DNA from: Gammaproteobacteria bacterium
GTDB lineage: Bacteria > Pseudomonadota > Gammaproteobacteria > Ga0077536
Direction of reading: 5' to 3'
NCBI GenBank assembly: GCA_050248455.1
Contig: JBFWSI010000001.1
Coordinates: 1 to 33,302 of the forward strand
Length of the DNA: 33,302 bases
Of the stretch, positions 13,673 through 33,223 are shown in pieces; positions within the stretch are counted from its first letter, which is position 1; each line of letters begins with the position of its first letter. Both the position numbers and the translations under genes were made by a program. The notes beneath the pieces are model-generated. The model worked only from the letters and a program-made list of their open reading frames with translations. It had not been told where the DNA came from and ran no database searches.

Positions 13673-13677
13673 TGGGT

Positions 13678-16657: not shown

Positions 16658-16744
16658 CCGGGCGCATGCTTCGTGGCTGCGGTGAGCCCGCAGCGGCCAT
16701 GGACGGCGATAGCTCGAACATCGATCGCTAACGCCAGTTCCAAT

Positions 16745-17203
16745 ATGCAAGCCAAAGTCTATCCAGAGTGCAACGGTGTCGATATCGCCGCGCCACCGGC
16801 AGCGCAGACGAGCGCGCCTGCCTCCCGCACGGTGCTCTACGTCGAGGACAATCCTTCGAACATGCAGCTCATGCGAAAGCTGTTCGCACGGCGCCGGGAC
16901 ATCCGGCTCGTCTATGCGTACACGCCGCTGCTCGGTATCGAGATGGCGCTGACCGAAAAGCCCGATCTCGTGCTCCTCGACATCAATCTGCCCGGCATGA
17001 ACGGCCGTCAAGTGCTCGCGCGCTTGCGCAGCCATCCGGAAACCGCCGCCGTGCCGATAATCGCGGTGACGGCGAATGCGATGCCGAGCGACGTCGAACA
17101 GGGCCTCGCTGCCGGGTTCGATGCCTATGTGACGAAGCCGATCGACATTTCGGCGTTCATGCAATCGATCGATCGCTGGCTCACCGTCGGCGCTTCGGTG
17201 TGA
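16745..17203 (+). CDS. Single-domain response regulator (REC only)
   Basis: The receiver domain is clear (VLYVEDNPSNMQLM..., DLVLLDINLPGMNG, IIAVTANAM, YVTKPID). The start is uncertain: ATG 16745 was chosen, while the track uses GTG 16673, which contains a 7-bp stem hairpin (16676-16694). No output domain is present. Confidence 0.75.
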   Translation: MQAKVYPECNGVDIAAPPAAQTSAPASRTVLYVEDNPSNMQLMRKLFARRRDIRLVYAYTPLLGIEMALTEKPDLVLLDINLPGMNGRQVLARLRSHPETAAVPIIAVTANAMPSDVEQGLAAGFDAYVTKPIDISAFMQSIDRWLTVGASV

Positions 17204-17225
17204 CGCGACGCCAATCCTGGCGCGG

Positions 17226-18266
17226 TCATTCGTTTGCCGCGGCGCCTACCGGCACACGCAGGAGCGCCGTTATCCCGCGCTCGTGGCCGCGCCGCTCCAA
17301 GCTCGCTCCGAGCTGATCGCAGCATATCGTCACGAGACGACAGCCCAGCCCGGGCGCCACGCCCGAGTCGAAGTCGAGCGTGCCGCCGCCATCGTCCGTC
17401 ACCTCGATCTCGAGGACGGCGTCACGCAGCCGGGCCGATACCGACACCCGCAGCGTCCTGGACCAGTCGCGCCGATGCTTCGCGGCGTTGGTCAGCAATT
17501 CGTTGAGGATCAGCATCAGGTGCGTGAATCGATTGCCCGGCAGCGGCGGCAGCGCCGCCTCGATCCGTCCGATCAGCTCGTCCCCCGGCAGCAGCAAGGC
17601 GCCGCGCGCCCTGTCCAGCAGTTTCTGCAGTTCCAGGGAGACACTGCGCGGCGCCTGGTCCGCATTGCCGAGGAATCCCCGGGACAACTCGGTGAGCGAT
17701 TCGACGCGGCCGATCAGATCGGACAAGAGCTCGTTGCCGCGCTGCGCATCGGCCTCGGGACGGTGCAGTTCGAGCACCGCTCGGATGATCGCGAAGTTGT
17801 TCTGGATCCGATGACCGAACTCCCTGAGCTGCAGGCGACAGGCAGCGAGTCGGCTTTCGAGCTCGTGTATCGTCGCGATGCCGGCCGTCACGTCGCGCGC
17901 CGTGCCGACCAGCGCGCGCGCCGTGCCGTCTTCGTTCCTGAGCGGTCTTGCGTATTGATGCACCCAGCGGACGGGCTCGTCCGCCGACGGCGTCAGCCGA
18001 TGTTGCACCTCGACGACCTTGCCCGACGCGAGACATTCGTCGACCGTCTGGCGGACCGTGGCCCGATCCTCGGGGTGCACCAGTGCCCACGCTTCGCTCA
18101 GCGCGAGCGTTCTCGGGGCTGCCGGCGCCGCCATGCCGGGATGCGCGCAAGGCATGACCCAGCACTGGTGTTCGCGCAGATCCAACTGCCAGACCCAGTG
18201 CGCTCCGAGGCCGAGGGCATACGCCAGATCCTCGGGCCAGTCGGGCGGCATCGAAAACTCGGCCAT
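17226..18266 (-). CDS. Soluble PAS sensor histidine kinase of the HisKA_2/HWE type
   Basis: I chose the start at ATG 18266 (GGGGAG upstream), 16 nt after the GGDEF-EAL stop. It has a PAS-like N-terminus (WVWQLDL...VHPEDRATV...LVGTARDVT), the H-box EFGHRIQNNFAIIRAVL typical of HisKA_2, and an N-box ILNELLTNAAKH. The track ORF is over-extended. Confidence 0.8.
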   Translation of the reverse strand: MAEFSMPPDWPEDLAYALGLGAHWVWQLDLREHQCWVMPCAHPGMAAPAAPRTLALSEAWALVHPEDRATVRQTVDECLASGKVVEVQHRLTPSADEPVRWVHQYARPLRNEDGTARALVGTARDVTAGIATIHELESRLAACRLQLREFGHRIQNNFAIIRAVLELHRPEADAQRGNELLSDLIGRVESLTELSRGFLGNADQAPRSVSLELQKLLDRARGALLLPGDELIGRIEAALPPLPGNRFTHLMLILNELLTNAAKHRRDWSRTLRVSVSARLRDAVLEIEVTDDGGGTLDFDSGVAPGLGCRLVTICCDQLGASLERRGHERGITALLRVPVGAAANE

Positions 18267-18282
18267 GCGCTGTCGCTCCCCT

Positions 18283-20439
18283 TCAGTCCACCGCACCGGC
18301 CATCGCCCGGCCGGTGGCCCGCATCGCATCGTCCGACAGTGCGAACGCTGGACACCAGGCCTGCGCGGAGCGCAGCTCGGACAGCGGCACGGGATGCCCC
18401 ATGAGATAGCCCTGCGCGAAGTCGACGCCGAGCTCCCGCAGCGTCGAGAGCACGTCGGTGTTCTCGACGAATTCCGCAATCGTATGTCGGTTCAGCGACT
18501 TGGCGATGTTCACGATGGACTGGACAATCATGTAGTCGAGGGATTCCGCGCAGATGTTGCGGATGAAGCTGCCGGCGATCTTGATGTACTCGGCCGGGAT
18601 GTTCTTCAGATACGCGAACGAGGTCATGCCGGTGCCGAAGTCGTCGAGTGCGAACTCGCAGCCGTACGCCTTGAGGCTGGCCATCAGGCGCAGGGCGGCG
18701 TCGAAGTTGCTGATCGCGGCCGTCTCCGTCACCTCGAACACGATCGCGGTCTTCGCGTCTCGCTTCGCCAGCAGCCGGCACACGGTGCCCACGAACTCCG
18801 GGCTGCTGAGCGACTGGCCGGACAGGTTGATGCTGCACGACGGGCACGCCGCCTCCCCCAGGCTGTCGACCCAGTCGAGCGTGCGCTCTATGACCCAGAG
18901 ATCGATTTTCGGTGCCAGGCCGAAGCGTTCGGCCGCGGGCAGGAACTCCGATGGCGGAATGACGGCGCCGTCCTTGCCGCGCAGGCGCACGAGCACCTCG
19001 AGCTTAGGCCGATAGGGCGGGCAGGCGCGGATCGGGACGATCGGCTGCCCCCACAGCTCGAGCTCGTCCTCGTCGATCGCGCGCTGCAGCTTCGCGGCCC
19101 AGTGCGACGCGGACTGGGTACGGCGCAGTTCCACGTCGTGTTCCTCGTAGACGAGCGCCCGACCGCGTCCGCGCTCCTTGGCCGCATAGCAGGCCGCATC
19201 CGCCTTCTGCAGGATGTCGACCAGCCGATGCGAACCGCAGCGGAATTCCACCAGCCCGACGCTCATGCCCACCGAAAAGGTGAATTCGGACCAGTTGAAG
19301 CGAATGGCGCGGACATTGGCGGCGATGCGATCGATCAGCTTCTGCGCGCGGCTCGAATCGCAGTCCGGGAACACCAGTGCGAACTCATCGCCGCCGAGCC
19401 GGGCGATGATGTCGGCACGACGACCGCCCGCGCGCAGCACCCTGGCCACCTCGCGCAGCAGCTGGTCGCCCGCGGTATGGCCGCAGGTGTCGTTGATCAC
19501 CTTGAACTGGTCCAGGTCGATGAAGCACAGCGTATGCACCGCTCCATCATCGGGGCCCGACTCGAGCAGCTGCTGTGCCCGCTGCTCGAAACCGAGGCGA
19601 TTGACGAGGCCCGTCAGCGCGTCGTGCGTGGCCTGGTACGACAGCTTCTTCGACAGTTGCAGGCGCTTGGTGATGTCCTCGGCAACCACGAGCGCATAGC
19701 AACGTCCGTTCTCGCGACAGAAGACGCGGATCGTGAGCTGCAGCCAGCAGTCCCAGGTCCGATCGGACGCGATCCGGCAATGCACCTGGGCCACCTCGCC
19801 CGGCCGCGTGCTGGCGCGTTCCAGCGATGCGCGCACGGCCGCGCGATCCGCCGCATAGACGAATTCCAGCAGCTGCACGTCGATCATGCCCTGGCTGCTG
19901 TGGGCGGCGAAGAAATTGCGTCCGTAATCGTTGATCTCGCAGATCCGGTATGTCTCGTCGAGCGTGAAGAGTATGCAGGGATTCTCGTCGAACAGCGCGC
20001 GGAGTCGCCGTTCCTGTTCGCGCGCCGTGCGCAGCGCCGCCACGCGCTCCGAGACGTCGCGCACCGTGACGCAGACGAAGGCCGTGCCCTCGACGTCGAT
20101 CGGGCTCAGGTCGATGTCGACGGGAAACTCGCGACCCGCGCGGTCGACGGCGCGCAGATCGGCCGACTTGCCCATCGGCCGCGCAACGCGCTGGCGCGTG
20201 TAGCCGGACACGTGGCCGGCATGTCGCGCCCGCACGGACGCGGGTACCAGAGACGACACGTCGCGCCCGACCAGTTCATCCTTCGCGTAGCCGAACAAGC
20301 GGCTCGCGGCGAGGTTGGCGTATCGGATGGTGCCGCTCGCATCGACCAGCAGCACGCCATCCGGCATCGCTTCGACGACCGACTCACCGACCGCCACCGA
20401 CGGCAAGCGCTGCTGCCGCTCCGTATCTTCCTGCCTCAT
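18283..20439 (-). CDS. PAS-PAS-GGDEF-EAL c-di-GMP turnover protein
   Basis: I chose the start at ATG 20439 (AAGGGGG 5 nt upstream). It has two PAS modules, an intact GGDEF (RLGGDEFALVF) with RxxD (RRAD) five residues upstream, and an EAL domain with EVLVR, DDFGTG, EVTE, AEFVEN and QGY motifs. Confidence 0.9.
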   Translation of the reverse strand: MRQEDTERQQRLPSVAVGESVVEAMPDGVLLVDASGTIRYANLAASRLFGYAKDELVGRDVSSLVPASVRARHAGHVSGYTRQRVARPMGKSADLRAVDRAGREFPVDIDLSPIDVEGTAFVCVTVRDVSERVAALRTAREQERRLRALFDENPCILFTLDETYRICEINDYGRNFFAAHSSQGMIDVQLLEFVYAADRAAVRASLERASTRPGEVAQVHCRIASDRTWDCWLQLTIRVFCRENGRCYALVVAEDITKRLQLSKKLSYQATHDALTGLVNRLGFEQRAQQLLESGPDDGAVHTLCFIDLDQFKVINDTCGHTAGDQLLREVARVLRAGGRRADIIARLGGDEFALVFPDCDSSRAQKLIDRIAANVRAIRFNWSEFTFSVGMSVGLVEFRCGSHRLVDILQKADAACYAAKERGRGRALVYEEHDVELRRTQSASHWAAKLQRAIDEDELELWGQPIVPIRACPPYRPKLEVLVRLRGKDGAVIPPSEFLPAAERFGLAPKIDLWVIERTLDWVDSLGEAACPSCSINLSGQSLSSPEFVGTVCRLLAKRDAKTAIVFEVTETAAISNFDAALRLMASLKAYGCEFALDDFGTGMTSFAYLKNIPAEYIKIAGSFIRNICAESLDYMIVQSIVNIAKSLNRHTIAEFVENTDVLSTLRELGVDFAQGYLMGHPVPLSELRSAQAWCPAFALSDDAMRATGRAMAGAVD

Positions 20440-20706
20440 GTAGACCCCCTTCGATATGTCCGGCGACGACGACGTGGGCCGTCGCACGAATGTCGCTCTG
20501 GATAACGGCGTCTGCAGACGTTCCGACGCAGCTTGGGGGCGTTGGGCTGAAACCTACCTCGGTCGAAGGAGGTGGCGAGCATAAGGCCTCGAGCAGGAGG
20601 CGCCTATTGTCTTCCATGATTATTCGGCACGTTGGACTTCGCACTTTAGTGGAGCGAGCGATACCGTTCGGTCCATCGCTCTGCAAGAAATCTTTGGAGC
20701 GCTCGT
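20440..20706 (-). promoter_or_regulatory. 267-nt untranslated leader/intergenic region between the ANTAR regulator gene and the GGDEF-EAL gene
   Basis: It is visibly less GC-rich than its flanks and has no convincing ORF. Minus-strand hairpins lie at 20656-20681 (7-bp stem gagcgat/atcgctc), 20586-20601 (5-bp stem, 6-nt loop) and 20556-20573 (5-bp stem, 8-nt loop, followed by UUU). Confidence 0.5.
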
Positions 20707-21324
20707 TCAACCTCGTTCGATCATCCTGCTCATCGCGCTCAACAGTTCGAGCGAGCCGCGGCGATCGACGATGCGCTGCGCCGCTTCTTCGAGCGGCATC
20801 CGGTTGCTGCGCGCGAAGTAGCGCACGACCCGGATGCTTTCCTCTTCGCTGAGACCGAAGCGCTCCATCACGATACCGTTGGCGACGTTCGCGGTTCGCC
20901 GCCCGTCGACCAGCTGCCGCGCATGTTCGGACAGCGCCATCAGCTCGGCGGCGCGTGCCAGCCCGGTCTCGACGACGGCAAGGACCTCGCGCGCCGTGGC
21001 CGGCTTGAGGACGAAGCCGACGGCGCCGCTCGATGCCGCATCCCGCACGGTCTCCGTATCCGAACGGCCGGTCAAAAAGGCGAACGGCAATCGGTAGCGT
21101 TCGAGCAGCAGGCGACCCAGGGCCGCACCGCTCTGATCCGGCAGGCCGTAGTCCACCAGCGCGAAGTCGACCTTCAGTCCCTCATCGAGGGCGTTCAAGG
21201 CATCGGCACTCGAATGGGCAACCGTCGTGTGGACCGCTTCGCGCTCGAGTTCGGCGCGGGTGCCCGCGGCGACGAGGCGATCGTCTTCGACCAGCATGAT
21301 CCGGCGTATCGGTTCGCGCTTCAT
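20707..21324 (-). CDS. Response regulator with an ANTAR RNA-binding output domain (REC-ANTAR)
   Basis: I chose the start at ATG 21324 (AGGAAAGGGGA upstream), 22 nt after the kinase stop. REC motifs: IMLVEDDRL, FALVDYGLPDQSG, VLKP. The C-terminal region ANGIVMERFGLSEEESIRVVRYFARSNRMPLEEAAQRIV matches the ANTAR helix pattern. Confidence 0.85.
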   Translation of the reverse strand: MKREPIRRIMLVEDDRLVAAGTRAELEREAVHTTVAHSSADALNALDEGLKVDFALVDYGLPDQSGAALGRLLLERYRLPFAFLTGRSDTETVRDAASSGAVGFVLKPATAREVLAVVETGLARAAELMALSEHARQLVDGRRTANVANGIVMERFGLSEEESIRVVRYFARSNRMPLEEAAQRIVDRRGSLELLSAMSRMIERG

Positions 21325-21346
21325 CGTTTCCCCTTTCCTCGATGAC

Positions 21347-23725
21347 TCAACGGACCGCATTGCGAGCGGCCCGCGTTTCACGACGCAGTGAACGCGTCTG
21401 TGTCTCGCCCGGCCCGGGACCGGGCAGTTCGATCCAGAAGGTCGATCCCGAGCCGTACTCGCTCTCGACGCCGATGGCGCCGCCCATTTGCTCGATCAGC
21501 GCCTTCGCGACCGTGAGGCCCATGCCGGTGCCTTCGATCGAGCGCTCCTCGTCCACGAGGCGGACGAAGGGTTCGAACAGAGACGGAAGCGCGTCGGCCG
21601 GAATGCCGGGCCCCATGAGCCGCTTGCGGGCGGATGCGGACTCCGTCCATTCGAGTCGGACGCTGCCGCCGGGCCGGTTGTACTTGATGGCATTGCTCAG
21701 CAGATTGATGAGCACCTGTCGGAGGCGGGTCGGTTCGGCCCGGACCTCGCAGCTCCCGGCGGCAAGCTCGATGCGAATGCCACGCTCCTGCGCGATTGGC
21801 CGCAGCAGGGCGACGCAGTTCGCCAGTTCGCGCGCGAGATCCACGCAGCCGAGATCCAGCGCATGCGCTTCGCGCTCGAACTTCGACAGATCGAGCACCT
21901 CGTTGATCAGGGCGAGCAAATGGCGGCCCGCAGATTCGATGAAGGCCATGTCTTCGCGCTGTTCCGCGGCGAGGGGCAGTTCGACGTCCGAAATCAGGAG
22001 CTGCGCGAAACCGAGGATGGCGTTCAGCGGCGTGCGCAGTTCATGGCTCATGCGGGACAGAAATTCGCCCTTGGCGTTGGCCGCCGCCTCGGCCTTCAGG
22101 CGGGCGGCATTGAGTTCCTGCGTACGCGATTCGACCAGCCGTTCGAGTTCGTCCCGATTGCGAATCTGCTCGGTCGCATCGCGCGCCACGCCGCAGACCC
22201 CCATCACCATGCCGTTCTCGTCGTGCATGCGGACGAGGACGTGATGATGCGGGACCATGCCGCTGGCCAGGCGGACGCTCGCTTCCACGGCGATCGCGCC
22301 CTCGCGCATCACGCGTTCGAGCGCCTGCTGGAGGCGCGGCACTTCACTCTGTTCGGCGAATTCGAGCAGGTGGCGGCCGTGCAACGCATCCCCCTCCAGC
22401 TCGAATATCTCCTCGACCCGCGGATTCCACCAGCGCAGGCGAAAATCGGCGTCGGTCACGTACACGATGTCGCGGATGGCGGCGATGATCGCGCGGTTCA
22501 CCGCATAGGCTTGGTGCAGTTCGCGCTGCGCCCGGCGGCTGTCCGTGATGTCGACCGAAACCCCGGTGATGCTGCTCACGGCGCCGTCGGCGGCCAGTAC
22601 CGGCGTCATCAGCTGATGGAAGATTCTCCCGCCGATTTCGCATTCGGCCTCGGCGCACGCTCCGCTCTGGGCCTTGCGAAAGGATTCGATCAGCTGCGCG
22701 TCGTGCGCGAAGCGTTCGAACACGTTGGTGCCGATGAAAGTTTCCGGCGACTCCGTGCCGCAGGTCAGGTCCCTGCCTTGCGCCAGGCGTATCATCCCGC
22801 TCGGATCTGCGCTCCACAGCACCACGGGACAGCTCGACAATACCGTCTGGAGCTTTGTGTTCGCGGCAGCGAGCTGCGCCTCGGCCCGGCGCAGCTCGGT
22901 CACGTCCTGGGCCACTGCTGCGAGGTTCAGCGGTTCGCCGGTGATCTCGTCGTCGATCCGGAACACGGTGCCGTGGACCAGCGTGTCGGCGCCCGTCACC
23001 TGGTTGCGAATCCTGATGTCGCCGGTCCATGAGCCGTGCGACATCACGAAAGGGAGCACGAATTCCTCGAAATACGAACGGTCGGGCTCGCCGAAAAAGC
23101 GCTGGGTATGGGAACCGAGCACCTCCTCAGCGGGCATACCGAACATGCGCAGCCCGGCTTCGTTGACGAACTGGATTCTGGCCTCGAGATCGGAGTAGCC
23201 GATGTAGTGCGGCGAGTTGCGCACGATCGCGGCGAGGCGCCGTACGGCATCCTCGGCGGGATTCAGCGCCGGGGTCGCGGGCGCGGCCTGGACGCATTCG
23301 TGCACGCAATCGAAGCTCGAGATCATCTCCTGCACGACGCGGAGCTGGCTGCATTCGCCGTGCTCCCCCTGTCGCAGCGTGCCTCGCTCCTGCACGCGCC
23401 TGACCGATCCGCCCACGCACAGCCGGTAGACGATCGCGTAGGAACTGCGATCGCGGATCCCGCTGCGGCGCGCGTGGCGAACGGCGGCGAAATCCTCGGG
23501 ATGGATGGCGCAGTTGAAACGCGCCGACGCCGGCGGCTGCGCGTACGGGGTTTCGCCGAGGAAGCGATAGATTGCGGCCGACCAGCGCGGTGGGTGATCG
23601 CCCGGCATCACTTCCCACACGCCGACCTCAGCGAGCTCGAGCCCGGCGATAGCCAGATCGCCGCAGTCGAACGGCCGCGGCTCGACTCCCCGTGCATTCA
23701 TGGTCGCTGCCCGCGCGTCGGTCAT
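21347..23725 (-). CDS. Soluble multi-PAS (about four modules) sensor histidine kinase, HisKA plus HATPase_c, no receiver
   Basis: H-box EFLSRMSHELRTPLNAILGF. N/G boxes NLLSNAIKYNRPGG, GTGMGLTVAKALIEQMGG. Several PAS/PAC-like blocks (LAAVAQDVTELRRAE, GVSVDITDSRRAQ, VCGVARDATEQIRN). The start is uncertain (TTG 23779, ATG 23725 or ATG 23701, none with a good RBS); 23725 is given. Confidence 0.85.
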   Translation of the reverse strand: MTDARAATMNARGVEPRPFDCGDLAIAGLELAEVGVWEVMPGDHPPRWSAAIYRFLGETPYAQPPASARFNCAIHPEDFAAVRHARRSGIRDRSSYAIVYRLCVGGSVRRVQERGTLRQGEHGECSQLRVVQEMISSFDCVHECVQAAPATPALNPAEDAVRRLAAIVRNSPHYIGYSDLEARIQFVNEAGLRMFGMPAEEVLGSHTQRFFGEPDRSYFEEFVLPFVMSHGSWTGDIRIRNQVTGADTLVHGTVFRIDDEITGEPLNLAAVAQDVTELRRAEAQLAAANTKLQTVLSSCPVVLWSADPSGMIRLAQGRDLTCGTESPETFIGTNVFERFAHDAQLIESFRKAQSGACAEAECEIGGRIFHQLMTPVLAADGAVSSITGVSVDITDSRRAQRELHQAYAVNRAIIAAIRDIVYVTDADFRLRWWNPRVEEIFELEGDALHGRHLLEFAEQSEVPRLQQALERVMREGAIAVEASVRLASGMVPHHHVLVRMHDENGMVMGVCGVARDATEQIRNRDELERLVESRTQELNAARLKAEAAANAKGEFLSRMSHELRTPLNAILGFAQLLISDVELPLAAEQREDMAFIESAGRHLLALINEVLDLSKFEREAHALDLGCVDLARELANCVALLRPIAQERGIRIELAAGSCEVRAEPTRLRQVLINLLSNAIKYNRPGGSVRLEWTESASARKRLMGPGIPADALPSLFEPFVRLVDEERSIEGTGMGLTVAKALIEQMGGAIGVESEYGSGSTFWIELPGPGPGETQTRSLRRETRAARNAVR

Positions 23726-23807: not shown

Positions 23808-23827
23808 TCGGAATAAGCTTATTCCGA
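23808..23827. promoter_or_regulatory. Perfect 20-bp palindrome in a divergent promoter region (candidate operator)
   Basis: tcggaataag|cttattccga: 10+10 with no spacer, in an AT-enriched stretch. It lies between the kinase start (23725 or earlier, minus) and the small ORF start (23938, plus). Confidence 0.4.
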
Positions 23828-23937
23828 AGCCTAGCCCGCTCGCTAGCGTTTTGCGTGCCAGCCCCCTGTCGCCGGGCACCGATGGTCATCGGCAATCCGG
23901 CCCGACCGCTCCGCCGCCGGCGGACGAGGGAGCAGAC

Positions 23938-24204
23938 ATGCGAGGCGAAGTCATTCTCACGCTGGAAGACAGACATCGGGCCATCGTGCGCATCGACGAC
24001 GGCGACTTTGCAGTACTGCAATTCGTCCCCTCGACCCCCGTGTCCCAGGCCGACGTGATCGGCGGCATGCTGCGCGCCCACGGCATCGTGAGATTGTCGA
24101 ACTGGACGCGTCACGTACATTTCTACACCATCGTCATGGCGAGCGGGTGTTCGTTCCGGACCGCGTTTCGGATCGCGCTCGGCGACGAGTTCCTGCTGTG
24201 CTGA
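23938..24204 (+). CDS. Hypothetical 88-aa protein
   Basis: ATG 23938 is preceded by GAGGGAG. Third-position bias is GC-rich like neighbouring genes. No recognisable domain (MRGEVILTLEDRHRAIVRIDDGDFAVLQF...). It is divergent from the multi-PAS kinase and convergent with cheB. Confidence 0.5.
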   Translation: MRGEVILTLEDRHRAIVRIDDGDFAVLQFVPSTPVSQADVIGGMLRAHGIVRLSNWTRHVHFYTIVMASGCSFRTAFRIALGDEFLLC

Positions 24205-24345: not shown

Positions 24346-25431
24346 TCACTGTCTGTTCAGTGCCCCAAAGGCCTGAATGGCCGCCGAGATTCTGCTCAGC
24401 GGCACTACGTCGGCGGCAGCATCGAGCTTTACGGCCTCCTTCGGCATGCCGTAGACCACACAACTGTCCTCGTCCTGGGCAATGGTGTGCGCCTTGGCGT
24501 CGCGCATGTCGCGCAGTCCACGTGCGCCGTCGTCGCCCATGCCCGTCATGATGATGCCCAGCGCGTTCGCGCCGGCCGCTCTCGCCACGGAACGGAACAA
24601 CACGTCCACCGACGGGCGGTGTCGGTTCACGAGCGGCCCGTCGATGACCTCGACGTGATACTGGGCGCCGCTCCGCTTCAGCACCATGTGCTTTCCGCCG
24701 GGCGCGATCAGCGCCCGTCCCGGAATGACGCGGTCATTGCTTCTGGCTTCACGCACCTCTATCTGGCAGAGACCGTCGAGACGATTGGCGAACGCCGCCG
24801 TGAACTGTTCGGGCATGTGCTGCACGATGACCAGCCCCGGTGACACTCGCGGCAGTGCGGAGAGCACCACCTCCAGCGCCTGCGTGCCGCCGGTCGAAGT
24901 GCCGATCGCGACGATGTGCTCGGTCGTTCTGATCATCGCTGCCGAATCAGGGGGCGGCAGCACCGCATCGACGGTATGCTTGGGTGCGGCCTTCTCTCGC
25001 TGCGGCGGTTCGCAGCGCAATCTGTTGACTCGTGCCCGTGCGGCCGCCTTTACCGCGTCAATCAGGTTGTCGGTGGACTCCTGGAGAAACGCTTTCACGT
25101 TCATCCGCGGCTTGGTGACGACGTGGACGGCCCCCGCGGCGAGCACCTGCATCGTCGTTTCCGCGCCTTTCTCGGTCAGGGAGGAACACACGACGATCGG
25201 CGTGGGCTTCTCGGACATCACCTTCCTGACGAAGCTGATGCCGTCCATCCTCGGCATCTCGACGTCGGTGACGATGACGTCCGGCCATTTGGATTTCATC
25301 CGCTCGAGCGCGAACAAGGGATCCGCCACGGCAGCCATCACCTGGATGCTCGGATCCCGGGCGAGCGCCTCGCTCATTACCTGCCGGACGACGGCCGAAT
25401 CGTCGACCACAATCACGTTGATGCTGCTCAC
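24346..25431 (-). CDS. cheB: Chemotaxis response regulator protein-glutamate methylesterase CheB
   Basis: Re-called to GTG 25431 (GAGGAGGG 4 nt upstream; GTGA overlap with the cheD stop). REC ([25 protein letters not shown]) plus methylesterase domain ([22 protein letters not shown]). The track ORF of 538 aa is over-extended. Confidence 0.92.
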
Positions 25432-25955
25432 CCTACCCTCCTCGATCGGGAGTGTCCCCGCTCGACGGTCGACGGATCGCTGTACCGCACCCACACGAGA
25501 CCGTCGCGCATGTCCATTCTGACGCTTCTGTGACCGGTGCCCCCGGTATGCTCTCCCGCGATCCGCAGGCCGAACTCGGCGCAGAGCCTGCGCGCACAGA
25601 CGAGATTTTTCGCGCCGACGGACCGTCCGGCGTTGCGGGCGTCGCCCGCCACCACGCTGCTTCCGCCGAAGAGCTTTACGTGGAACTGCCGTGGCGCCGC
25701 GCTCCACTTCGCCGCATGAGCCAACAGGATGCGCAAGGCCTCGTCGCCGTAGCGACCATCGAGTGAGCCGTCGCAGCTGTCGATCCGTGTCGGGAGCACG
25801 AAATGACACATGCCACCGATACGGAGCAGCGGGTGCCACATGGTCAGCGCGACACACGAACCGAGCAGCGTCCTGACGCGGGTGGTCGATCCGACGAAGC
25901 ACGACTCTCCCGGGAGCAGGAAGACGTCGGCGATCTTTTCGTCGTTGCCGCGCAT
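25428..25955 (-). CDS. cheD: Chemoreceptor glutamine deamidase CheD
   Basis: 175 aa with the CheD signature [12 protein letters not shown]...GGMCHFVLP and KLFGG. It starts 3 nt after the cheR stop. Confidence 0.9.
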
Positions 25956-25958
25956 GGG

Positions 25959-26840
25959 TCACGCCGGCCTGCGGAAGATCGAAGGTGCGACCGGCTGAAC
26001 TGCCGCGGAAACACCATGGAGATTCTCGGAATGGCTCAACATCAGATAGCCGCCGGGACGGACATGGGGCACGACGCGGGCCATCACCTTGCGCTTGGTC
26101 TCCAGGTCGAAGTAGATCATCACGTTGCGCAGAAATACGACGTCGAAGGCGCCAATCTCAGGCAGCGCGGCATTGAGATTGATCGAATGGAAAGACACGC
26201 GCTCGCGCAGGGGGCGGTCGATGAGCAAGGTGCCGCTTTGGCGCCCGATTCCCTTCAGGCAGTACTTCGCGAGGTAGTCCTTGGGAATGCCCGTGGTACG
26301 CGCGATCGCGTAACGCGCCGACCGCGCCACTCCGAGGACACGCGAGCTGATATCCGATCCGAGTATCTCCCAGGACGCGCCGAAGCCCATGGCTTCGGCG
26401 AGCACCATGGCAATGGTGTACGCTTCCTCGCCGGACGACGACGCCGCGCTCCATACGCGAAACGTTCCATCACCCGCCCGCCGCGGAATTATCTCCTCGC
26501 GCAGGTGATCGAAATGCTTCGGTTCGCGAAAAAAGTACGTTTCGTTGGTCGTGAGCAAATCGAGAGCCGTCTGCAGCTCACCCGCCGGCTCGCCGCTCAT
26601 CAGCATCCGGAAATACGCCGCATAGCTCGCAGCGCCGAGATGCTGCACGCGCCTGAGCAGCCTCGCGGCCACCAGCGTTCTCTTGTGGCCGGCGAGACTG
26701 ATGCCGGTGGAGCTGTACAGCCAATCGCGAAACAGCCCGAACTCGCGGCCCGACAGACTCGGACACGTCGTGCCCGCGGCCGCTCCGCCCGGCTCCCACC
26801 GCCCGACCGACCGGGAACCGAGCCTGCTCGTTTCCGTCAC
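25959..26840 (-). CDS. cheR: Chemotaxis protein methyltransferase CheR
   Basis: 293 aa with a GTG start and GAGGAG 6 nt upstream. [13 protein letters not shown], the SAM-binding motif [18 protein letters not shown], and [10 protein letters not shown] support the call. Confidence 0.92.
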
Positions 26841-26850
26841 GGCGCTCTCC

Positions 26851-27369
26851 TCACCTGGCCAGGCTGACGGTGGCGGCCAACTCCTCCGTCGAAAGTATGC
26901 GTTCGACGTTCAGGATGATGACGAAATCGCCGTCGATCTTGCCCATGCCCGCAATGAAATCCGCCCGGAGCTTCGCTCCGAACGAAGGCGCCGGTTCGAC
27001 GCCTTCCGGCGGGATCTCGAGCACCTGGCTGACCGCGTCCACGACGACGCCGACATCCTGCCGCTCGCCGTCGGGACCCACCTCCAGAATGATTATGCAG
27101 GTACGACGCGTGGACTCGGATCGAGTGCCGCCGAATCGCAAGGACAGATCGACGACCGGCACGACGCGGCCTCTGAGATTGATGACGCCGCGCACGAAGG
27201 ACGGCATCATCGGCACGGCGGTGACCAGCCCGTATTCCAGAATCTCCTTCACCGCGAGTATGCCGATCGCGAACGTCTCGTCGCCGAGGCGGAAAGTAAG
27301 ATACTGATGCTGGTCTTCCTGCGCCGAGTCGTCGGCGTGCAGCGCCAGTGGTTTCATCGCAGTGCTCAT
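26851..27369 (-). CDS. cheW: Chemotaxis coupling protein CheW
   Basis: I chose the start at ATG 27369 (AGGAGGA 5 nt upstream; this RBS overlaps the MCP stop TAG). The CheW fold pattern is present: YLTFRLGDETFAIGILAVKEI...VINLRGRVVPVVDL. Confidence 0.9.
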   Translation of the reverse strand: MSTAMKPLALHADDSAQEDQHQYLTFRLGDETFAIGILAVKEILEYGLVTAVPMMPSFVRGVINLRGRVVPVVDLSLRFGGTRSESTRRTCIIILEVGPDGERQDVGVVVDAVSQVLEIPPEGVEPAPSFGAKLRADFIAGMGKIDGDFVIILNVERILSTEELAATVSLAR

Positions 27370-27379
27370 CGCATTCCTC

Positions 27380-29002
27380 CTAGAAACGGACGTACTCGCT
27401 TTCGGCAGCGGCATCCTCGCTCACGGCAAGATTGCCCTGTATCGCGGGCGAGCTGGCCGCGGGCCTGCGTGCAGCGACTACGGTATTCGCTACCGGCTGC
27501 ATCCCGGCGACCCGGAAGAAGCTCATGAGCTGCTGAAGCTGTTGCGCCTGCCCCGACATCTCCTCGGCAGTCGCCGCCAGCTCCTCTGCGGCGGAAGCAC
27601 CCTGCTGCGTGGTCTGGCTGAGCTGCGTCATCGCAGCATTGATTTGCGTGACGCCACTGGCCTGCTCGCCGGACGCGGCCGCGATTTCCTGGACCAGATC
27701 GGAGGTCTTCTGGATGGCCGGCACAATCCGTTCGAGCAGCTCGCCCGCCTGCTCGGCGACCTTCACCGAGTCGTTCGCGACGCCGCCGATCTCCTGAGCC
27801 GCAACCTGCGAGCGCTCCGCCAGCTTGCGCACCTCGGTGGCCACGACCGCGAAACCGCGGCCATGCGCGCCGGCGCGCGCTGCTTCGATCGCGGCATTCA
27901 GCGCGAGCAGATTGGTTTGGTAGGCGATGTCGTCGATGATCGAGATTCTCTCCGCGATCTCGCGCATGGCCGACACGGTCTTGCGCACCGCTTCCCCGCC
28001 TTCGCTCGTCTCCTTGGCGGCGTTCGTCGCCATCGAGTCGGTGACTTTCGCGTTCTCGCTGTTCTGACCCACGGACGCCGACATCTGCTCGATCGACGCG
28101 GAGGACTCTTCGACCGCCGCCGCCTGTTCCGAACTGCTCTGCGACAACGATTGCGCGGTGCCGCTCACCTGCTCGGACGCCGAGGAGAGCGAATCCGCGG
28201 CGTTGCGCACTTCGCCGATGATGCCGGAAAGCCTGTCCACCATGTTGCGCATGCTCTGCAGCAGCCGCCCCGTCTCGTCTCTGGTGTCGATGTCGATACG
28301 CATGCTCAGGTCGCCGTTGGCCAGTCGGTCTGCGACTTCCACCGCCACACCGAGCGGCTTCGTGATGCTGCGGGTTATCCACAGTGCGATGCCGAAAGCC
28401 ACCAGCAGAGCGCCGATTCCCAACCCGATCATGATCGTGCGGGCCGTGGCATAGACTCTCTCGGCGGCCTTGCCGTCTTCGCTCATGAGCTGCCCCTCAT
28501 ACGCGATCAGACCGTTCAGGCTGTCCAGATACCCGCGCATCGTCGGGAAGAGCTCCTCGTGTACGAAGGTCAGCATGCCGGCTCTGTCGCCTTTCTCACG
28601 CAGCACGAGCAGCTGCTTCTGTCCGGCGACGTACTTCTCACGATTCGCCCTCACCTCTGCCAGCATTTCCTTTTCCCGCGGCAGCTCCACGACCTTGGCG
28701 AGCTTTTCGATCCGATCGCCGATGTTGCTGCGTGCCTCCTCGATTCTTTCAATCTGCTTCGACGCATCCGTCTCGTCGGTGGCCAGCATCAGGTCGCGCA
28801 TCGAGATCGCGATGATGTTGACGTTGTCGATTACCTCGTTGGCGAGCACCGTTTTGGGCCAGGTCGTGGCAACCACGCGATTCAGCATCTCGTTGACGGC
28901 CGCGAGGCGCGTGACGCCGACGAAGAAGATTGCCGACATCAGGGCCACGACCGCTCCAAAGCCCACGGCGAGACGCACGCCGATTTTGACGTTATTGAAC
29001 AT
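27380..29002 (-). CDS. Methyl-accepting chemotaxis protein with a four-helix-bundle (4HB_MCP-type) periplasmic sensor, HAMP and signalling domain
   Basis: 540 aa. Two TM segments flank a helical periplasmic domain of about 160 aa. HAMP ([20 protein letters not shown]). Highly conserved hairpin tip [40 protein letters not shown]. The C-terminus ends ...SEYVRF. Confidence 0.92.
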
Positions 29003-29107
29003 TTTCTCTGCTCCTTTCTGCGGGAAATACCAGGTTATCGGTCAGCCTGCGCGTCTTGCGCGCGGCACTCGGCTCCGTGCGGAGCCATGCTTCATCGAAG
29101 AGATCGT

Positions 29108-31300
29108 TCACGTTGCGACCTGCGGCACAGGCTCGCCGATCGTCCGCTCCCTGTCGGGGTCGGCGGCGACCTGTATGAGTCCCGGCACGTCGAGGATCAG
29201 CGCGACCTCGCCGCTGCCCAGGATCGTGGATCCGCTGATCCCGGCAAGCGATCCGAACATCGTCCCCAGCGGCTTGATCACGGTCTGCGACTCCCCGATC
29301 AGCTCGTCGACAATCATGCCGGCCTTCATCGTGCCGAATCGCACGACGACGATATTGGCGCGCCGCCCCCTCTCGCCTTCGATCGCGAAGAGATCGCGAA
29401 TTTCGAGGACGGGAAGCACTTCGCCGCGCAGATCCACGTAGCCTCGACTGCGCGCGGCGCGGCGCATGAGCGGCGGGCACTCCAGGCACTCGACCATGGT
29501 GTCGAGCGGAATCACGTAGCGCGCCTTGCCGACGCCGACCAGGAATCCGTCGATGATCGCGAGAGTCAAGGGAAGCCGGATGCGCACCGTGGTGCCGAGA
29601 CCGGGCCGGCTTTCGATCTCGACCGTGCCCCGCAGCGCCTCGATGTTGCGCTTGACGACGTCCATGCCCACTCCGCGACCGGAGAGATTGCTGACGTGAT
29701 CCGCCGTCGAGAACCCGGGGGCGAAGACGAGGTTGTCCATCTCCTTTTCGGAGAGGCTCTGGCTTTCGGACACGATCCCCCGTTCGATGGCCTTCTGCAG
29801 GATCCTGTCTCGCTTCAGGCCGCCGCCGTCGTCCGCGACCTCGATGACGATGCTGCCGGAATCGTGGAATGCGTTCAGACTCAGCGTGGCGCGCGCCGGC
29901 TTGCCGCGCGCAGCGCGCACTTCGGCGGGCTCGATCCCGTGATCCATGGCGTTGCGCACGAGATGCATCAAGGGATCTCCGATGCGCTCGACCATCGATT
30001 TGTCGAGCTCCGTATCGGCCCCGCGGATGTCGAGATCGACGTCCTTGCCGAGCTCGCGACTGACGTCGCGTACGACCCTCGTATAGCGTTGGAACGTGGA
30101 TCCAATCTGCACCATGCGCAAGGTCAGCACACTGTTGCGGAGATCCTCGACCAGCTGCAGGAGCACTCTCGTCGACTCGATCAGATCCAGGTTGCCGCCG
30201 CGACGCGCCACCGTCTGCGTGGCGGAGCCGGCAATGACGAGCTCTCCCACCAGATCGATGAGTTGATCGAGCTTCTCGGCGTTGACGCGGATCAGACGTC
30301 CCTCGTCCTGTCGACGTTCCCTGGTCTGCTGTTTGTCGAGGGCGGCGGCTACCACCGAGGCATGGACGGCGCCGGCCTGCGTGAGGACTTCGCCTATCGG
30401 CCTGGGCGCCGGCTCTGCGATGCGCGCCTGCTCGGCCGCCTGCTGCCTGAGGCCGAGCTCCAGTTCGCCGTTCGTAATGGCGCCGCAGCGCACCAGTATT
30501 TCCCCGAGGCGCATCGGATCCTCGGGGAGCCCGTTTATCAGCTCGATGTATTCGAGCACCCGGCTCGCCGGTGGAAGGATCCGGATCTGCGCGTCCTCGC
30601 GGACGAAATCGAAGGCCGCCTCGATTTCGTGCTTGTCGGCGGCACTTCGGAAGGCGAGCTCGAAGCCGAGATAGCAGGCCTCCGGGTCCATGTCGGCGGC
30701 GGCCGGGAGCGCGTCGGTAATGGTGGCGAGGTGAACGATTTCGCCGAGGGTCGCCAGGTACTGGAGCTGCGACAACGGATCCATCCCGTTGCGCAACACG
30801 TCCAGGCCATAGCGCAGGGATATGTGCCAGCACTCCCTCAGGCCCGGTGCCCCTCCGATTTCAGTCGTCGAGGAGCAATCCTCGGGCGCAGCGGGCGGCG
30901 ATGCGCCGCGGGCTTTCCCCAGCCGCGCAAGCTCGGCAAGCAGCGCCGCTCCCTTCGCCTGCGCCTCGGCATCGATCTCCACGCTGGCCACGACCGGATC
31001 GACGATGGCGCCAGCGTGATCGACGCACGTCAGCAACAGCGCTATGCACGCTGGCGTAACGCCGATGTGGCCGTCCCTGATGCGGTCGAGCAGCGTTTCG
31101 ACCTCATGCATGAACTCGACGATGGGATCGAAGCCGAAGAGTCCGGCGGATCCTTTGATCGTATGAGCGGCGCGGAAAATCTCGTTGATCAGATCGGGAT
31201 CGGTCGGCCGGGACTCCAGCGCCAGCAAGGCCTGCTCCATCCGCTCCAGCAGTTCACGACTTTCGGCCACGAAAGTCTGCACGGCCGCATCGAGGTTCAT
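29108..31300 (-). CDS. cheA: Chemotaxis histidine kinase CheA (Hpt, dimerisation, HATPase and CheW-like domains; no receiver)
   Basis: 730 aa. Hpt site FRAAHTIKGSAG. N-box HLVRNAMDHGIE. G-boxes DDGGGL, GRGVGMDVV. C-terminal CheW-like domain. The ATG overlaps the STAS stop as ATGA. Confidence 0.93.
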   Translation of the reverse strand: MNLDAAVQTFVAESRELLERMEQALLALESRPTDPDLINEIFRAAHTIKGSAGLFGFDPIVEFMHEVETLLDRIRDGHIGVTPACIALLLTCVDHAGAIVDPVVASVEIDAEAQAKGAALLAELARLGKARGASPPAAPEDCSSTTEIGGAPGLRECWHISLRYGLDVLRNGMDPLSQLQYLATLGEIVHLATITDALPAAADMDPEACYLGFELAFRSAADKHEIEAAFDFVREDAQIRILPPASRVLEYIELINGLPEDPMRLGEILVRCGAITNGELELGLRQQAAEQARIAEPAPRPIGEVLTQAGAVHASVVAAALDKQQTRERRQDEGRLIRVNAEKLDQLIDLVGELVIAGSATQTVARRGGNLDLIESTRVLLQLVEDLRNSVLTLRMVQIGSTFQRYTRVVRDVSRELGKDVDLDIRGADTELDKSMVERIGDPLMHLVRNAMDHGIEPAEVRAARGKPARATLSLNAFHDSGSIVIEVADDGGGLKRDRILQKAIERGIVSESQSLSEKEMDNLVFAPGFSTADHVSNLSGRGVGMDVVKRNIEALRGTVEIESRPGLGTTVRIRLPLTLAIIDGFLVGVGKARYVIPLDTMVECLECPPLMRRAARSRGYVDLRGEVLPVLEIRDLFAIEGERGRRANIVVVRFGTMKAGMIVDELIGESQTVIKPLGTMFGSLAGISGSTILGSGEVALILDVPGLIQVAADPDRERTIGEPVPQVAT

Positions 31301-31656
31301 GTCGCGCTCCTTTTTCCCGACGGCGTGGACGCCGCGGCTGCTTCATGTGCACGGTCGACGGATTCCAGCATTTCCCCGTTCATGCGATACGTGTCGAGCA
31401 CCGCGCTGACCGCGCCGCTGGGCTCCCGCACCGAGAACGACTTTCCGTCGCGCGCCGCTTCACGTCTTGCCAGGAGCAGCTGCTGCAGCCCTGCCGTGTC
31501 GAATTCGTTCACTTGCGCCAGGTCCACCTCGACGGCATCGCTGCCCAGGACCGCGGCGAGCAACGCTTCTTTCAGCTCGCCGGCCGAATAAATCGTCATC
31601 TCGCCGGAGATCGACATGCGGGTGACTGCGTCCGCCTTGCTCACGTTCATTCTCAT
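31297..31656 (-). CDS. STAS-domain protein (anti-sigma-factor-antagonist fold) embedded in the che operon
   Basis: 119 aa with GAGGAG 7-8 nt upstream. ISGEMTIYSAGELKEALL...VEVDLAQVNEFDTAGLQQLLLA matches the SpoIIAA/STAS pattern. Thr-Ala replaces the usual Ser-Ser in the DSSG loop. Confidence 0.75.
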   Translation of the reverse strand: MRMNVSKADAVTRMSISGEMTIYSAGELKEALLAAVLGSDAVEVDLAQVNEFDTAGLQQLLLARREAARDGKSFSVREPSGAVSAVLDTYRMNGEMLESVDRAHEAAAASTPSGKRSAT

Positions 31657-31675
31657 GGTCGCGCTCCTCTGTACG

Positions 31676-32044
31676 TCACGGCAGGCAGAGCTTGGATACG
31701 GCCTGCAGCATCTGGTCGGGCTTGAACGGCTTGACGACCCAGGCCTTCGCGCCGGCCGCCTGCCCTTCCTGTTTCTTCGACTCCTGGGACTCTGTCGTCA
31801 GCATGATGATCGGCGTGAAGCGATACTGCGGATGCTTCTTCACCTCCTTGACGAAACTGATGCCGTCCATGTTCGGCATGTTGACGTCGCTGATGATGAG
31901 ATGAATCTTCTGGCCCGTGAGCTTGTCCAGCGCGTCGCGTCCGTCGCAGCCCTCGACGACCGCGTAGCCCGCCTGCGTCAGCGCGATGCGCACGACCTGA
32001 CGCAGCGACGCCGAGTCGTCGACCACCATGATGGTTTTGTTCAT
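31676..32044 (-). CDS. cheY: Chemotaxis response regulator CheY
   Basis: Single REC domain (IMVVDDSASLRQ, LIISDVNMPNMDG, IIMLTTES, VVKPF). I chose ATG 32044 (GGGAGA 8 nt upstream) over the GTG at 32050. Confidence 0.9.
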   Translation of the reverse strand: MNKTIMVVDDSASLRQVVRIALTQAGYAVVEGCDGRDALDKLTGQKIHLIISDVNMPNMDGISFVKEVKKHPQYRFTPIIMLTTESQESKKQEGQAAGAKAWVVKPFKPDQMLQAVSKLCLP

Positions 32045-32065
32045 GTGCACGTCTCCCGGGAGTGA

Positions 32066-33223
32066 TCAGAAGAAGGTGATGGCGTCGTCGCCGCCGGCGA
32101 CGGCCACCGCATCGCACGCGCCGCGGTGGTTCTCGCGCTCTTCCTGCGTCGAGTAGGTCTGGGCGAGACGCTCTATCGCCTGCGCGACCTGGCCGGCGTC
32201 GGGCAACCCGGATTGGCCCCCCAGCGCTTTCATGTTCGACGCCACGTGTTCGAGCACTTGTCCGACGCGATCCTGGAACTGGAGGTTGACGAGCGCGGAC
32301 GCGATTCGAATGCTGATTTCCGCCTGTTCCGCGCGCAGCGCCCCGGCCGTCTCGCCCAGTTCGCGCGTCACCGCGTCGAAGTCCGCGATCACCCCCTGAA
32401 TGTGTGCGTGCGAAGTGCCGACGAAGCGCGCGTCGCGTTCGGCCGAGTGTTCCACCGTATCCGCGGTGGTCCGGATCGCGTCGGAGATGATCGTGACCTT
32501 GTTGCTGATGCGCTTGCCCGTTTCACCCGACATCGTCGACAGCTTGCGCACTTCGTCGGCGACCACCGCGAAGCCCCGGCCGGCGTCGCCAGCGCGAGCC
32601 GCTTCGATCGCCGCGTTCAATGCGAGCAGATTGGTCTGGTCGGCGATGCTCGCCACCTCGGCAGCCATCACGGTCAGTTCGGTCGTGAAGCCGACGAGAT
32701 GCCGGATGCGCTCGAGCATCTGGGACTTCTCGCCCAGCGCCGCTTCGAGAGAATTCGTGACCGCCGTGAGCCGCGCCTCGCTGTCGCGGATGAGGGCCGC
32801 GACGTGTTCGGTCGACGCCTGGCCACCGCCCGCGGCGGAGGCGTCCAGCCGCGCGACGATGTCGGCGAAAGCCTGCGTCAACGCGGTGATGGCGTGCTCC
32901 GTCTGCACGCGCGCACTCTCGATCTGGCGAGCCCAGACCGGGATCGCATCGCCGGTCAGCGCGGCGTAGCCGTCGACATGCGCGGCGAGCGGGCGCACGG
33001 CCTCCGCGCGCGCCGCTTCCACATCGCGTTCGAATCGAAGCTCCCGGTAGTCCGCACTGCGGGAGGTGCGTGCGGCCAGCGCCAGGCCGAGACAGCCCAG
33101 CGGCACGGCAAGCATCATCGACGACGGCGAGAAGGCGCCGATGCCTGCGACGGCGAAGGCAGCGACGCCCGCGTACAGGACGCAGAGCGCGACGGGTGAG
33201 CGCAACAGTTTGGAGTCGTACAA
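32066..33223 (-). CDS. Methyl-accepting chemotaxis protein, membrane-hairpin-anchored, no periplasmic sensor or HAMP
   Basis: 385 aa with a TTG start and GAGGAA 6 nt upstream. Two adjacent hydrophobic helices with a loop of only a few residues (...[17 protein letters not shown]...) are followed directly by the cytoplasmic bundle. Tip motif [46 protein letters not shown] lies near the C-terminus. Confidence 0.88.

Follow-up and report, generated by a model that had tools for sequence, protein, structure and literature searches.

The 33,302-nt stretch of DNA analysed here (positions 1 to 33,302 of contig JBFWSI010000001.1, from a gammaproteobacterium; referred to below as the window) carries a gene for a response regulator with a receiver (REC) and an ANTAR domain, followed across a 267-nt gap by a gene for a PAS-GGDEF-EAL enzyme, a candidate for the turnover of cyclic di-GMP (c-di-GMP). 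In the most likely reading, which we put forward tentatively, the locus would be a motility- and chemotaxis-associated c-di-GMP module made up of two transcription units and served by a non-canonical ANTAR partner. The first unit would comprise a multi-PAS HisKA kinase (kinase 1) and the REC-ANTAR regulator, with a conserved upstream region of its own. The second would start at a sigma-28/FliA-type promoter within the 267-nt gap, and its mRNA would carry a structured 5′ untranslated region (UTR) of ~174 nt, the RbdA-like PAS-GGDEF-EAL enzyme and a PAS-HisKA_2 kinase (kinase 2), with the gene of a DivK-like receiver converging on its end. This second unit would be expressed with the late flagellar/chemotaxis regulon, like pdeH of Escherichia coli. 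Once phosphorylated by the HisKA_2 kinase and/or kinase 1, the ANTAR regulator would act in trans on the leader of the enzyme mRNA, through a recognition mode other than the dual hexaloop and with translation or mRNA fate, not an intrinsic terminator, as its target; sensory input would in this way be coupled to c-di-GMP turnover. The basis of the model is formed by the domains, the bipartite promoter-like element, the leader with covarying hairpins and the co-inheritance of the ANTAR and enzyme genes, all of them established computationally. The features concerned are the following:

21347..23725, minus strand: kinase 1, 792 aa, soluble, four PAS domains followed by HisKA and HATPase_c (Pfam; HisKA 67 bits)
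20707..21324, minus strand: 205-aa response regulator with REC and ANTAR domains, from a divergent ANTAR subfamily (Pfam Response_reg 61 bits; ANTAR 38.1 bits, cut-off 27.3)
20650..20706, minus strand: unconserved spacer immediately downstream of the ANTAR stop codon (gapped alignment to the related locus L001 at 55% identity; unalignable in L171)
20621..20649, minus strand: sigma-28/FliA-like promoter, CTAAAG-N15-GCCGAATA, predicted from sequence match and conservation
20440..20613, minus strand: predicted ~174-nt 5′ UTR of the GGDEF-EAL mRNA, with P1 at 20581-20607, P2 at 20552-20576 and helix P3 at 20523-20545
20563-20575, minus strand: anti-Shine-Dalgarno stretch CCACCUCCUUCGA, forming the 5′ arm and loop of P2
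20445-20451, minus strand: Shine-Dalgarno (SD) sequence AAGGGGG, within the predicted 5′ UTR
18283..20439, minus strand: PAS-PAS-GGDEF-EAL enzyme, 718 aa, soluble, RbdA/PA0861-like (Pfam GGDEF 135 bits, EAL 213 bits)
17226..18266, minus strand: kinase 2, 346 aa, soluble PAS-HisKA_2-HATPase_c (Pfam HisKA_2 30.3 bits, cut-off 22.3; HATPase_c 28.1 bits)
16673..17203, plus strand: convergent DivK-like single-domain receiver (Pfam 84 bits), start uncertain

Re-examination of the open reading frames (ORFs) reproduced exactly the coordinates and spacings given for all five genes in the original prediction, which had been made from the sequence alone. Four ORFs lie on the minus strand and one, convergent with them, on the plus strand, with gaps of 22, 267, 16 and 22 nt. 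The stop codon of kinase 1 (21347-21349) is 22 nt from the ATG of the regulator (21324), whose stop codon (20707-20709) is separated by 267 nt (20440-20706) from the ATG of the enzyme (20439); the enzyme's stop codon (18283) is 16 nt from the start of the HisKA_2 kinase (18266), and the stop codon of the latter (17226) is 22 nt from the end of the plus-strand receiver gene (17203). The operon-like spacing proposed for the whole run was borne out for kinase 1 and the regulator and for the enzyme and kinase 2, and it did not hold across the 267-nt gap. Pfam placed all the claimed domains above their gathering cut-offs and counted seven PAS domains (4 + 2 + 1), where about seven PAS-like modules had been proposed. 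The three sensors were also rightly described as lacking transmembrane segments: none contains a 19-residue window with a Kyte-Doolittle hydropathy above 1.6, compared with 2.2-2.4 for the two methyl-accepting chemotaxis proteins (MCPs) of the window.

The comparisons used throughout rest on four lineages, represented mostly by contigs of metagenome-assembled genomes (MAGs) or read assemblies, and on those members of the clade whose surroundings were examined. The nearest relative, L001, is contig DAOKZI010000008 of a Gammaproteobacteria MAG; it is ~86% identical to the window at the nucleotide level and collinear with it from CheA through the receiver gene. Set against L001, the gap between the regulator and the enzyme is bipartite. 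Its first ~57 nt are 55% identical, with indels (measured on the interval 20649-20706, flanking sequence being 88-91% identical), whereas the remainder is 88-89% identical and free of indels. Since third codon positions of the flanking genes are only 75-82% identical to L001, this second part is more conserved than largely synonymous sites. In an alignment of four orthologous leaders (window, L001, L172 with a regulator 91% identical and L171 with one 72% identical), it opens with two invariant blocks, TAAAGT and TGCCGAATA, with 13 variable bases between them.

The putative promoter at this position, CTAAAG-N15-GCCGAATA, occurs once in the window, and sites within two mismatches of the consensus are expected by chance 0.05 times per 33-kb window, both strands included. 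It has 12 of the 14 fixed bases of the sigma-28 consensus (TAAAG and GCCGATAA, ~14 bases apart), and GCCGA is kept. In the fliC promoter of Pseudomonas aeruginosa, TCTAAAG occupies positions -36 to -30 and GCCGATAA positions -15 to -8, GC forms an extended -10 element, and the A at -11 is flipped out; the spacer of sigma-28 promoters is conserved neither in sequence nor in length (PMC12784957). The element of the window agrees with the fliC promoter in both the GC and the -11A. A promoter belonging to the enzyme gene itself had been named at the outset as the counter-case to read-through from the regulator gene, and a conserved FliA-type promoter-like element is what the gap contains, as judged in silico. 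Similar motifs recur elsewhere. In L081, CTAAAG-N15-GTCGATAT lies in the gap 225 nt before the start codon of the enzyme, a distance similar to that in the window, and the ANTAR gene there also has a motif of this kind in front of it; in L174, an MCP-ANTAR operon has a near-consensus CTAAAG-N14-GCCGATAG ahead of its MCP gene. A scan for sigma-70 promoters found none on the coding strand of the gap. Three further candidates were rejected: sigma-54 readings of TGGAAG-N-GC in the leader and of TGGCAC-N5-ACGCT upstream of kinase 1, each of which loses a key dinucleotide in L001, and an EcfG-type GGAAC...CGTT in the leader, the spacing of which is wrong. As a separate observation, a near-consensus sigma-28 motif (TAAAGTTT-N10-GCCGATA, positions 7445-7470) was found at locus L090, ~860 nt past the stop codon of a HisKA_2-linked ANTAR gene; that locus also has MCP-CZB and GGDEF-EAL-CZB genes.

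If the sigma-28-like element is used, transcription would start near position 20613 and the enzyme mRNA would have a 5′ UTR of ~174 nt. This region is 88% identical to that of L001 over a gap-free alignment. Across the four leaders, RNAalifold and an explicit pair count identified six pairs with compensatory changes, all of them in P1 and P2; 92.5% of the P1/P2 cells were paired, compared with 29-46% when the 3′ partners were slid by 1-3 columns. L171 has an almost wholly different P1 sequence that nonetheless folds into a stem of 9 bp. No variation occurs in helix P3 or the closing helix, which are hence uninformative on covariation. In the minimum free energy fold of the window, CCACCUCCUUCGA pairs with UCGAAGGGGGU, which holds the SD sequence, and the modelled structures make possible a switch between the local P2 hairpin and sequestration of the SD sequence. 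The structured leader is probably a site of post-transcriptional control, with the co-inherited ANTAR regulator as the leading candidate effector. An in-frame N-terminal extension of the enzyme was rejected because it is broken by a 2-nt indel in L172, which marks the region as non-coding. Two other candidates were discarded: an 18-codon leader ORF is kept in L001 with mostly non-synonymous changes, and GGA sites of the CsrA/RsmA type in the UTR are no more numerous than expected by chance.

The enzyme encoded downstream of this leader is RbdA-like; its closest solved structure is that of PA0861/RbdA (PDB 5xgb, E = 5e-119). The GGDEF active site and an RxxD I-site are present (RRADIIARLGGDEF at residues 340-353) and conserved in the orthologues. 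The EAL domain shows the motifs EVLVR, EVTE, DDFG, EFVE and QGY, and its KxD motif reads KIA instead of KID at residues 620-622 (18574-18582, minus strand) throughout the window clade (the window, L001 and a 99%-identical relative), while L081 has KID. Judged by these motifs the protein is a candidate enzyme of c-di-GMP turnover, its activity not being predictable from sequence.

The REC-ANTAR and PAS-GGDEF-EAL genes are co-inherited as a pair in four lineages, always with a gap of 267-378 nt. Identity to the window is 94% for the ANTAR protein and 90% for the enzyme in L001, and it falls to 47% and 56% in L081-L084 (gap of 330 nt), 45% and 49% in L173, and 30% and 44% in L174. The gene order in L081-L084 is CheB, a small ORF, a divergent receiver, REC-ANTAR, the 330-nt gap, PAS-GGDEF-EAL and PAS-HisKA_2. 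In L173 the two genes are divergent across 378 nt and no HisKA_2 kinase gene adjoins the pair; the order in L174 is MCP, a small ORF, ANTAR, a 271-nt gap and the enzyme. Chemotaxis (che) or MCP genes adjoin the pair in the window, L001, L081 and L174, i.e. in three lineages. The original prediction had called for related genomes to be surveyed for the order kinase, REC-ANTAR, GGDEF-EAL, HisKA_2 kinase: the ANTAR-enzyme pair is conserved in all four lineages, whereas kinase 1 is absent from the L081 locus and no HisKA_2 kinase gene follows the enzyme gene in L173 or L174. The conserved core is thus the ANTAR gene and the enzyme gene with a long gap, and both kinases are dispensable. The conservation of the pair in four lineages supports a functional link between the ANTAR regulator and the GGDEF-EAL gene. 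The clade is rare, only five clusters among 5.8 billion clustered proteins matching its profile strongly; scans of metagenomes and genomes with the ANTAR protein returned mostly generic receivers. In sister ANTAR clades, no GGDEF-EAL neighbour was found at the loci examined. The CheB gene upstream of the ANTAR module of L081 is 47% identical.

Pfam, AlphaFold2 and Foldseek agree on the architecture of the regulator: a receiver, then a coiled coil, then a three-helix ANTAR domain. The receiver pocket is intact, residues D14, D15, D58 and K107 being invariant in the window, the homologues P0001, P0002 and P0003, and L001, and kept also in L173; the ANTAR homologue of L174 (4019-4666) has a pseudo-receiver in which neither the phospho-acceptor Asp nor the acidic pocket survives. 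The gene of this homologue overlaps the small ORF downstream of the MCP gene. An AlphaFold2 model (25 homologues; mean predicted local distance difference test score of 89) gives a receiver, a long helix, the ANTAR helices and one predicted extra C-terminal helix. The best Foldseek matches were EutV (its RNA-bound form included), Rv1626 and AmiR, with Rv1626 (PdtaR) being the second-best match to the window regulator in both sequence and fold.

HMMER aligned the ANTAR domain of the regulator to EutV (6wsh) without gaps, so that the RNA contacts could be compared position by position. EutV contacts RNA through R142, K143, K147, K149, E160, Y164, R168, M172, N173, R175 and R177; Y164, whose replacement by alanine costs 55-fold in affinity, stacks on the flipped G4, K149 hydrogen-bonds G4, and M172 is essential (PMC8934654). 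The eleven equivalent residues in the window are, in order, R, R, V, N, E, I, R, R, S, R and P. The hexaloop readers K149 and Y164 and the plug M172 are thus replaced by N, I and R, respectively, while the equivalents of R142, E160 (again a Glu), R168 and R175 are retained, together with several further conserved arginines. Replacement of the Lys and the Met extends to nearly all of the 25 aligned homologues, the Lys surviving in one (P0043). At the position of Y164, sister clades have F or W; only the clade with GGDEF-EAL genes as neighbours has given up the aromatic side chain. Rv1626, unlike the window regulator, still has AKG, an aromatic residue and Met at the positions that contact RNA. 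Fold and profile therefore make the window protein an ANTAR regulator, yet in the features tested it does not conform to canonical hexaloop recognition.

Which kinase serves the regulator bears on the wiring of the module. Kinase 1 has an ambiguous start, because the sister genome does not share the ATG at 23725, and its G1 box (DxGxG) is incomplete, reading KRL----MGPG in the window versus KRLCVTDTGPG in L001. A 12-nt (4-codon) in-frame deletion at 21610-21625, near 21616 (residues 703-704), has removed CVTD, including the G1-box Asp. This may mean that kinase 1 has reduced catalytic activity in this genome; an assembly error at the G1 box is the other possibility. Kinase 2 has the H-box EFGHRIQN at residue 149, and its closest solved structure is the EL346 LOV kinase (4r3a). 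In sister ANTAR clades (34-42% identity), a PAS-HisKA_2 kinase gene lies directly upstream of the regulator gene, overlapping it in L175 and L176; the contig of L177 carries only the ATPase end of the gene upstream of its ANTAR regulator. Because sister clades pair ANTAR regulators with HisKA_2 kinases, because such a kinase is the sole one at the L081 locus, where no kinase gene precedes the ANTAR gene, and because the G1-box Asp of kinase 1 is gone, the HisKA_2 kinase is at least as plausible a partner of the regulator as kinase 1, on genomic grounds. The HisKA_2 kinases of the different clades show weak orthology (23-29% identity). This pairing undercuts the two-tier cascade originally envisaged, in which the HisKA_2 kinase was to form a second tier under ANTAR control: the supposed second-tier kinase is plausibly the regulator's own partner.

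The pairing of HisKA_2 kinases with single-domain receivers, noted in the original prediction, fits an EL346-like kinase 2 and a DivK-like receiver (PDB DivK 1m5t, E = 1.3e-18), the true start of which is probably downstream of 16673. The arrangement resembles that of the HWE/HisKA_2 kinases of the EL346/LovK-LovR type, in which a soluble PAS-HisKA_2 kinase has an adjoining DivK-like single receiver; it differs in that related loci place the HisKA_2 kinase beside the ANTAR regulator instead.

Several observations weigh against the reading of two transcription units with a directly acting ANTAR regulator. The spacer of the promoter-like element is one base longer than that of P. aeruginosa fliC and its -10 element has two mismatches, and the enzyme genes of L173 and L174 have no sigma-28-like motif immediately before them. 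Additional read-through from the first unit remains compatible with the data, no terminator having been found. The folding energies of the UTR are not significantly better than those of shuffled sequences (z = -1.0 to -1.9), and the covariation comes from four sequences, three of them close, with the tested structure derived from those same sequences. Beyond the window clade no shared leader motif was detected in L081, L173 or L174, whether as a k-mer, as local similarity relative to shuffles or as a hit of the covariance model of the window-clade UTR; an operator conserved across the four lineages is accordingly not supported, their leaders having no common sequence or structure motif. Finally, the replacement of K149, Y164 and M172 may signal lost RNA binding, not changed specificity.

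ANTAR regulators are known from a few metabolic regulons: eut, nas/nir, ami and mycobacterial lipid genes. To our knowledge, all of these regulons use one RNA code, i.e. two hexaloops with A1 and G4. Here, a small and rare clade keeps the ANTAR fold without the residues that read this code, and it is nevertheless co-inherited with a c-di-GMP enzyme beside chemotaxis genes. A more specific proposal, which we regard as unlikely, is that this divergent clade recognizes some other RNA feature in the leader of a FliA-transcribed GGDEF-EAL mRNA, so that a che-linked two-component system would control c-di-GMP turnover through RNA. Were the link direct, it would represent a new mode of ANTAR RNA recognition or a new class of c-di-GMP-coupled regulator, and it would tie motility regulons to post-transcriptional control of second-messenger turnover. 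The original prediction knew of no characterized ANTAR regulon of this kind, and our literature searches likewise found no ANTAR regulator coupled to a GGDEF-EAL gene or a che cluster; neither a regulon of the GGDEF-EAL/che-linked type nor a non-hexaloop recognition mode is described for ANTAR proteins in the literature searched.

The alternative that survives best, in itself an unlikely one, reverses the direction of control: the GGDEF-EAL enzyme would set a c-di-GMP level sensed by the REC-ANTAR protein or its kinase, and the RNA targets of the regulator would lie elsewhere in the genome. Two precedents exist. NasT of Pseudomonas putida, a REC-ANTAR protein, binds c-di-GMP, which blocks its binding to RNA, and such binding is reported to be confined to Pseudomonas NasT homologues (PMC10783516), which speaks against the transfer of this mechanism to the window. 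In Mycobacterium tuberculosis, c-di-GMP is bound by PdtaS, the kinase of the ANTAR regulator PdtaR (10.1101/615575). Both systems tie a REC-ANTAR protein to c-di-GMP, as proposed here, and both differ from the window. P. putida NasT targets a canonical dual-hexaloop leader (NalA) of nirBD, and control runs from c-di-GMP to the ANTAR protein. PdtaS/PdtaR shares with the window a cytosolic PAS-type kinase, and with the sister clades, which pair ANTAR regulators with HisKA_2 kinases, the general arrangement; there, however, c-di-GMP acts on the kinase, and no GGDEF-EAL neighbour has been described. Reverse control would be consistent with co-inheritance of the pair in spite of variable gene orientation and the lack of a conserved leader motif, but it leaves the long conserved leader of the window clade unexplained.

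Somewhat less likely still is that the regulator and the enzyme are merely neighbours in a shared motility or chemosensory regulon and do not act on each other in either direction. Sigma-28-like motifs and che or MCP genes do recur around the loci, and the sister ANTAR clades manage without a GGDEF-EAL neighbour. Against this, the pair has stayed together while genes were rearranged or inverted and both kinases were lost, at ANTAR identities of 30-47%, a pattern typical of direct functional partners. The E. coli phosphodiesterase gene yhjH/pdeH is FliA-dependent (PMC4866697), and PdeH/YhjH together with RbdA (PA0861) of P. aeruginosa resemble the window in having an enzyme gene behind a sigma-28-type promoter beside chemotaxis genes, with a PAS-GGDEF-EAL protein closest to PA0861. 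The window enzyme differs from them: it is a soluble protein with two PAS domains, its gene is inherited together with that of an ANTAR regulator, and a HisKA_2 kinase gene follows in the window clade and in L081, though in neither L173 nor L174; RbdA is membrane-anchored. Wsp-type pathways also have a che-like cluster physically linked to a c-di-GMP enzyme. The window enzyme, in contrast, has PAS domains but no receiver domain, and no CheY was seen in the window; any link would run via the REC-ANTAR protein or the single receiver.

It is improbable, given the residues that remain, that the ANTAR domain has given up RNA altogether and makes protein contacts instead, for example as a phosphate sink or as an allosteric partner of either the enzyme or kinase 2. 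The loss of K149, Y164 and M172 throughout the clade, the extra conserved C-terminal helix and the pseudo-receiver of L174 would fit such a role, but the retained equivalents of R142, E160, R168 and R175, the other conserved arginines and an ANTAR fold modelled with high confidence argue for continued RNA binding.

The original prediction had the four minus-strand genes form one operon, in which the regulator, phosphorylated by kinase 1, would bind the 267-nt leader and stop premature termination, giving read-through into the GGDEF-EAL and HisKA_2 genes. The accepted ANTAR substrate consists of two tandem hairpins with hexaloops that have A1 and G4 (PMC10783516; PMC8934654). Strict and relaxed pattern scans found no dual A1/G4 hexaloop in the seven leaders of the window and six related loci (the window was also scanned), and no terminator-like site was found on the minus strand within 20440-20706. 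Rfam gave no match in the gap at gathering or permissive thresholds, so that a c-di-GMP or other known riboswitch is not supported. A single hairpin with an A1/G4 hexaloop (ACGGUA; AGGGCA in L001), 37-48 nt past the ANTAR stop codon, was rejected as a substrate: it stands alone, precedes the promoter-like element and has no counterpart in L172 or L171. EutV/EutW, NasR, NasT/NasS and AmiR/AmiC resemble the window in their protein architecture (REC or a sensor, a coiled coil and the three-helix ANTAR fold) and in the regulator gene adjoining a gene with a long leader; the window departs from them in lacking the dual hexaloop and an overlapping terminator, in the replaced EutV contacts and in the promoter-like element of the gap. 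A long gap after an ANTAR gene is by itself not evidence of an antitermination leader, and the divergent orientation of the two genes in L173 means that read-through is not a mechanism that all the lineages could share. Even though strand and gene order are kept in L001, L172, L081 and L174, canonical ANTAR regulators act on adjacent leaders (PMC3369931; PMC10783516) and the absence of a terminator would allow co-transcription, these results, together with the unconstrained sequence beside the ANTAR stop codon, the kinase 1 lacking its G1-box Asp and the lack of a kinase gene before the ANTAR gene in L081, make an antitermination-gated operon very improbable.

Outside the module itself, the window (G+C content ~67%) contains two further features next to kinase 1:

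24346..33223, minus strand: chemosensory cluster encoding an MCP, an unknown ORF, a STAS-domain protein (31300-31656), CheA, an MCP, CheW, CheR and CheB (Pfam)
23937-24204, plus strand: small ORF of 89 aa, divergent from kinase 1 and located between kinase 1 and cheB, with no Pfam match

The chemosensory cluster lies on the same strand as the module, upstream of kinase 1, and is kept apart from it by the small opposite-strand ORF and a conserved upstream region. As far as the window shows, the cluster includes no CheY; the STAS-domain gene sits immediately upstream of cheA. The position equivalent to that of the small ORF holds an unrelated 82-aa ORF in L081. A perfect 20-bp palindrome, TCGGAATAAGCTTATTCCGA (23808-23827), lies in the conserved region upstream of kinase 1, beside a CTAGC-N6-GCTAG inverted repeat. 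In L001 the palindrome is imperfect; it probably serves as the binding site of a regulator.

Downstream of the signalling genes, at 11774-14895 on the minus strand, are genes for an amidase-signature amidase and a Zn-dependent dehydrogenase (Zn-ADH). A link of the ANTAR regulator to the latter, prompted by the ANTAR-REC-ADH order found in Massilia-type relatives of the regulator, was rejected, the identity of the ADH proteins being only 26%. Upstream of the Zn-ADH gene (ATG at 14771), the segments GAGCGA, TCGCTC and GAGCG at 14899-14929 (minus strand) can form two mutually exclusive hairpins, one with an ACGGUG hexaloop; this region is not conserved in L001, and the element was likewise discarded as an ANTAR link. 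Another soluble hybrid kinase, with the domain order GAF-3xPAS-HisKA-HATPase-REC, is encoded at 4372-7191 on the plus strand, making the window rich in cytoplasmic sensors.

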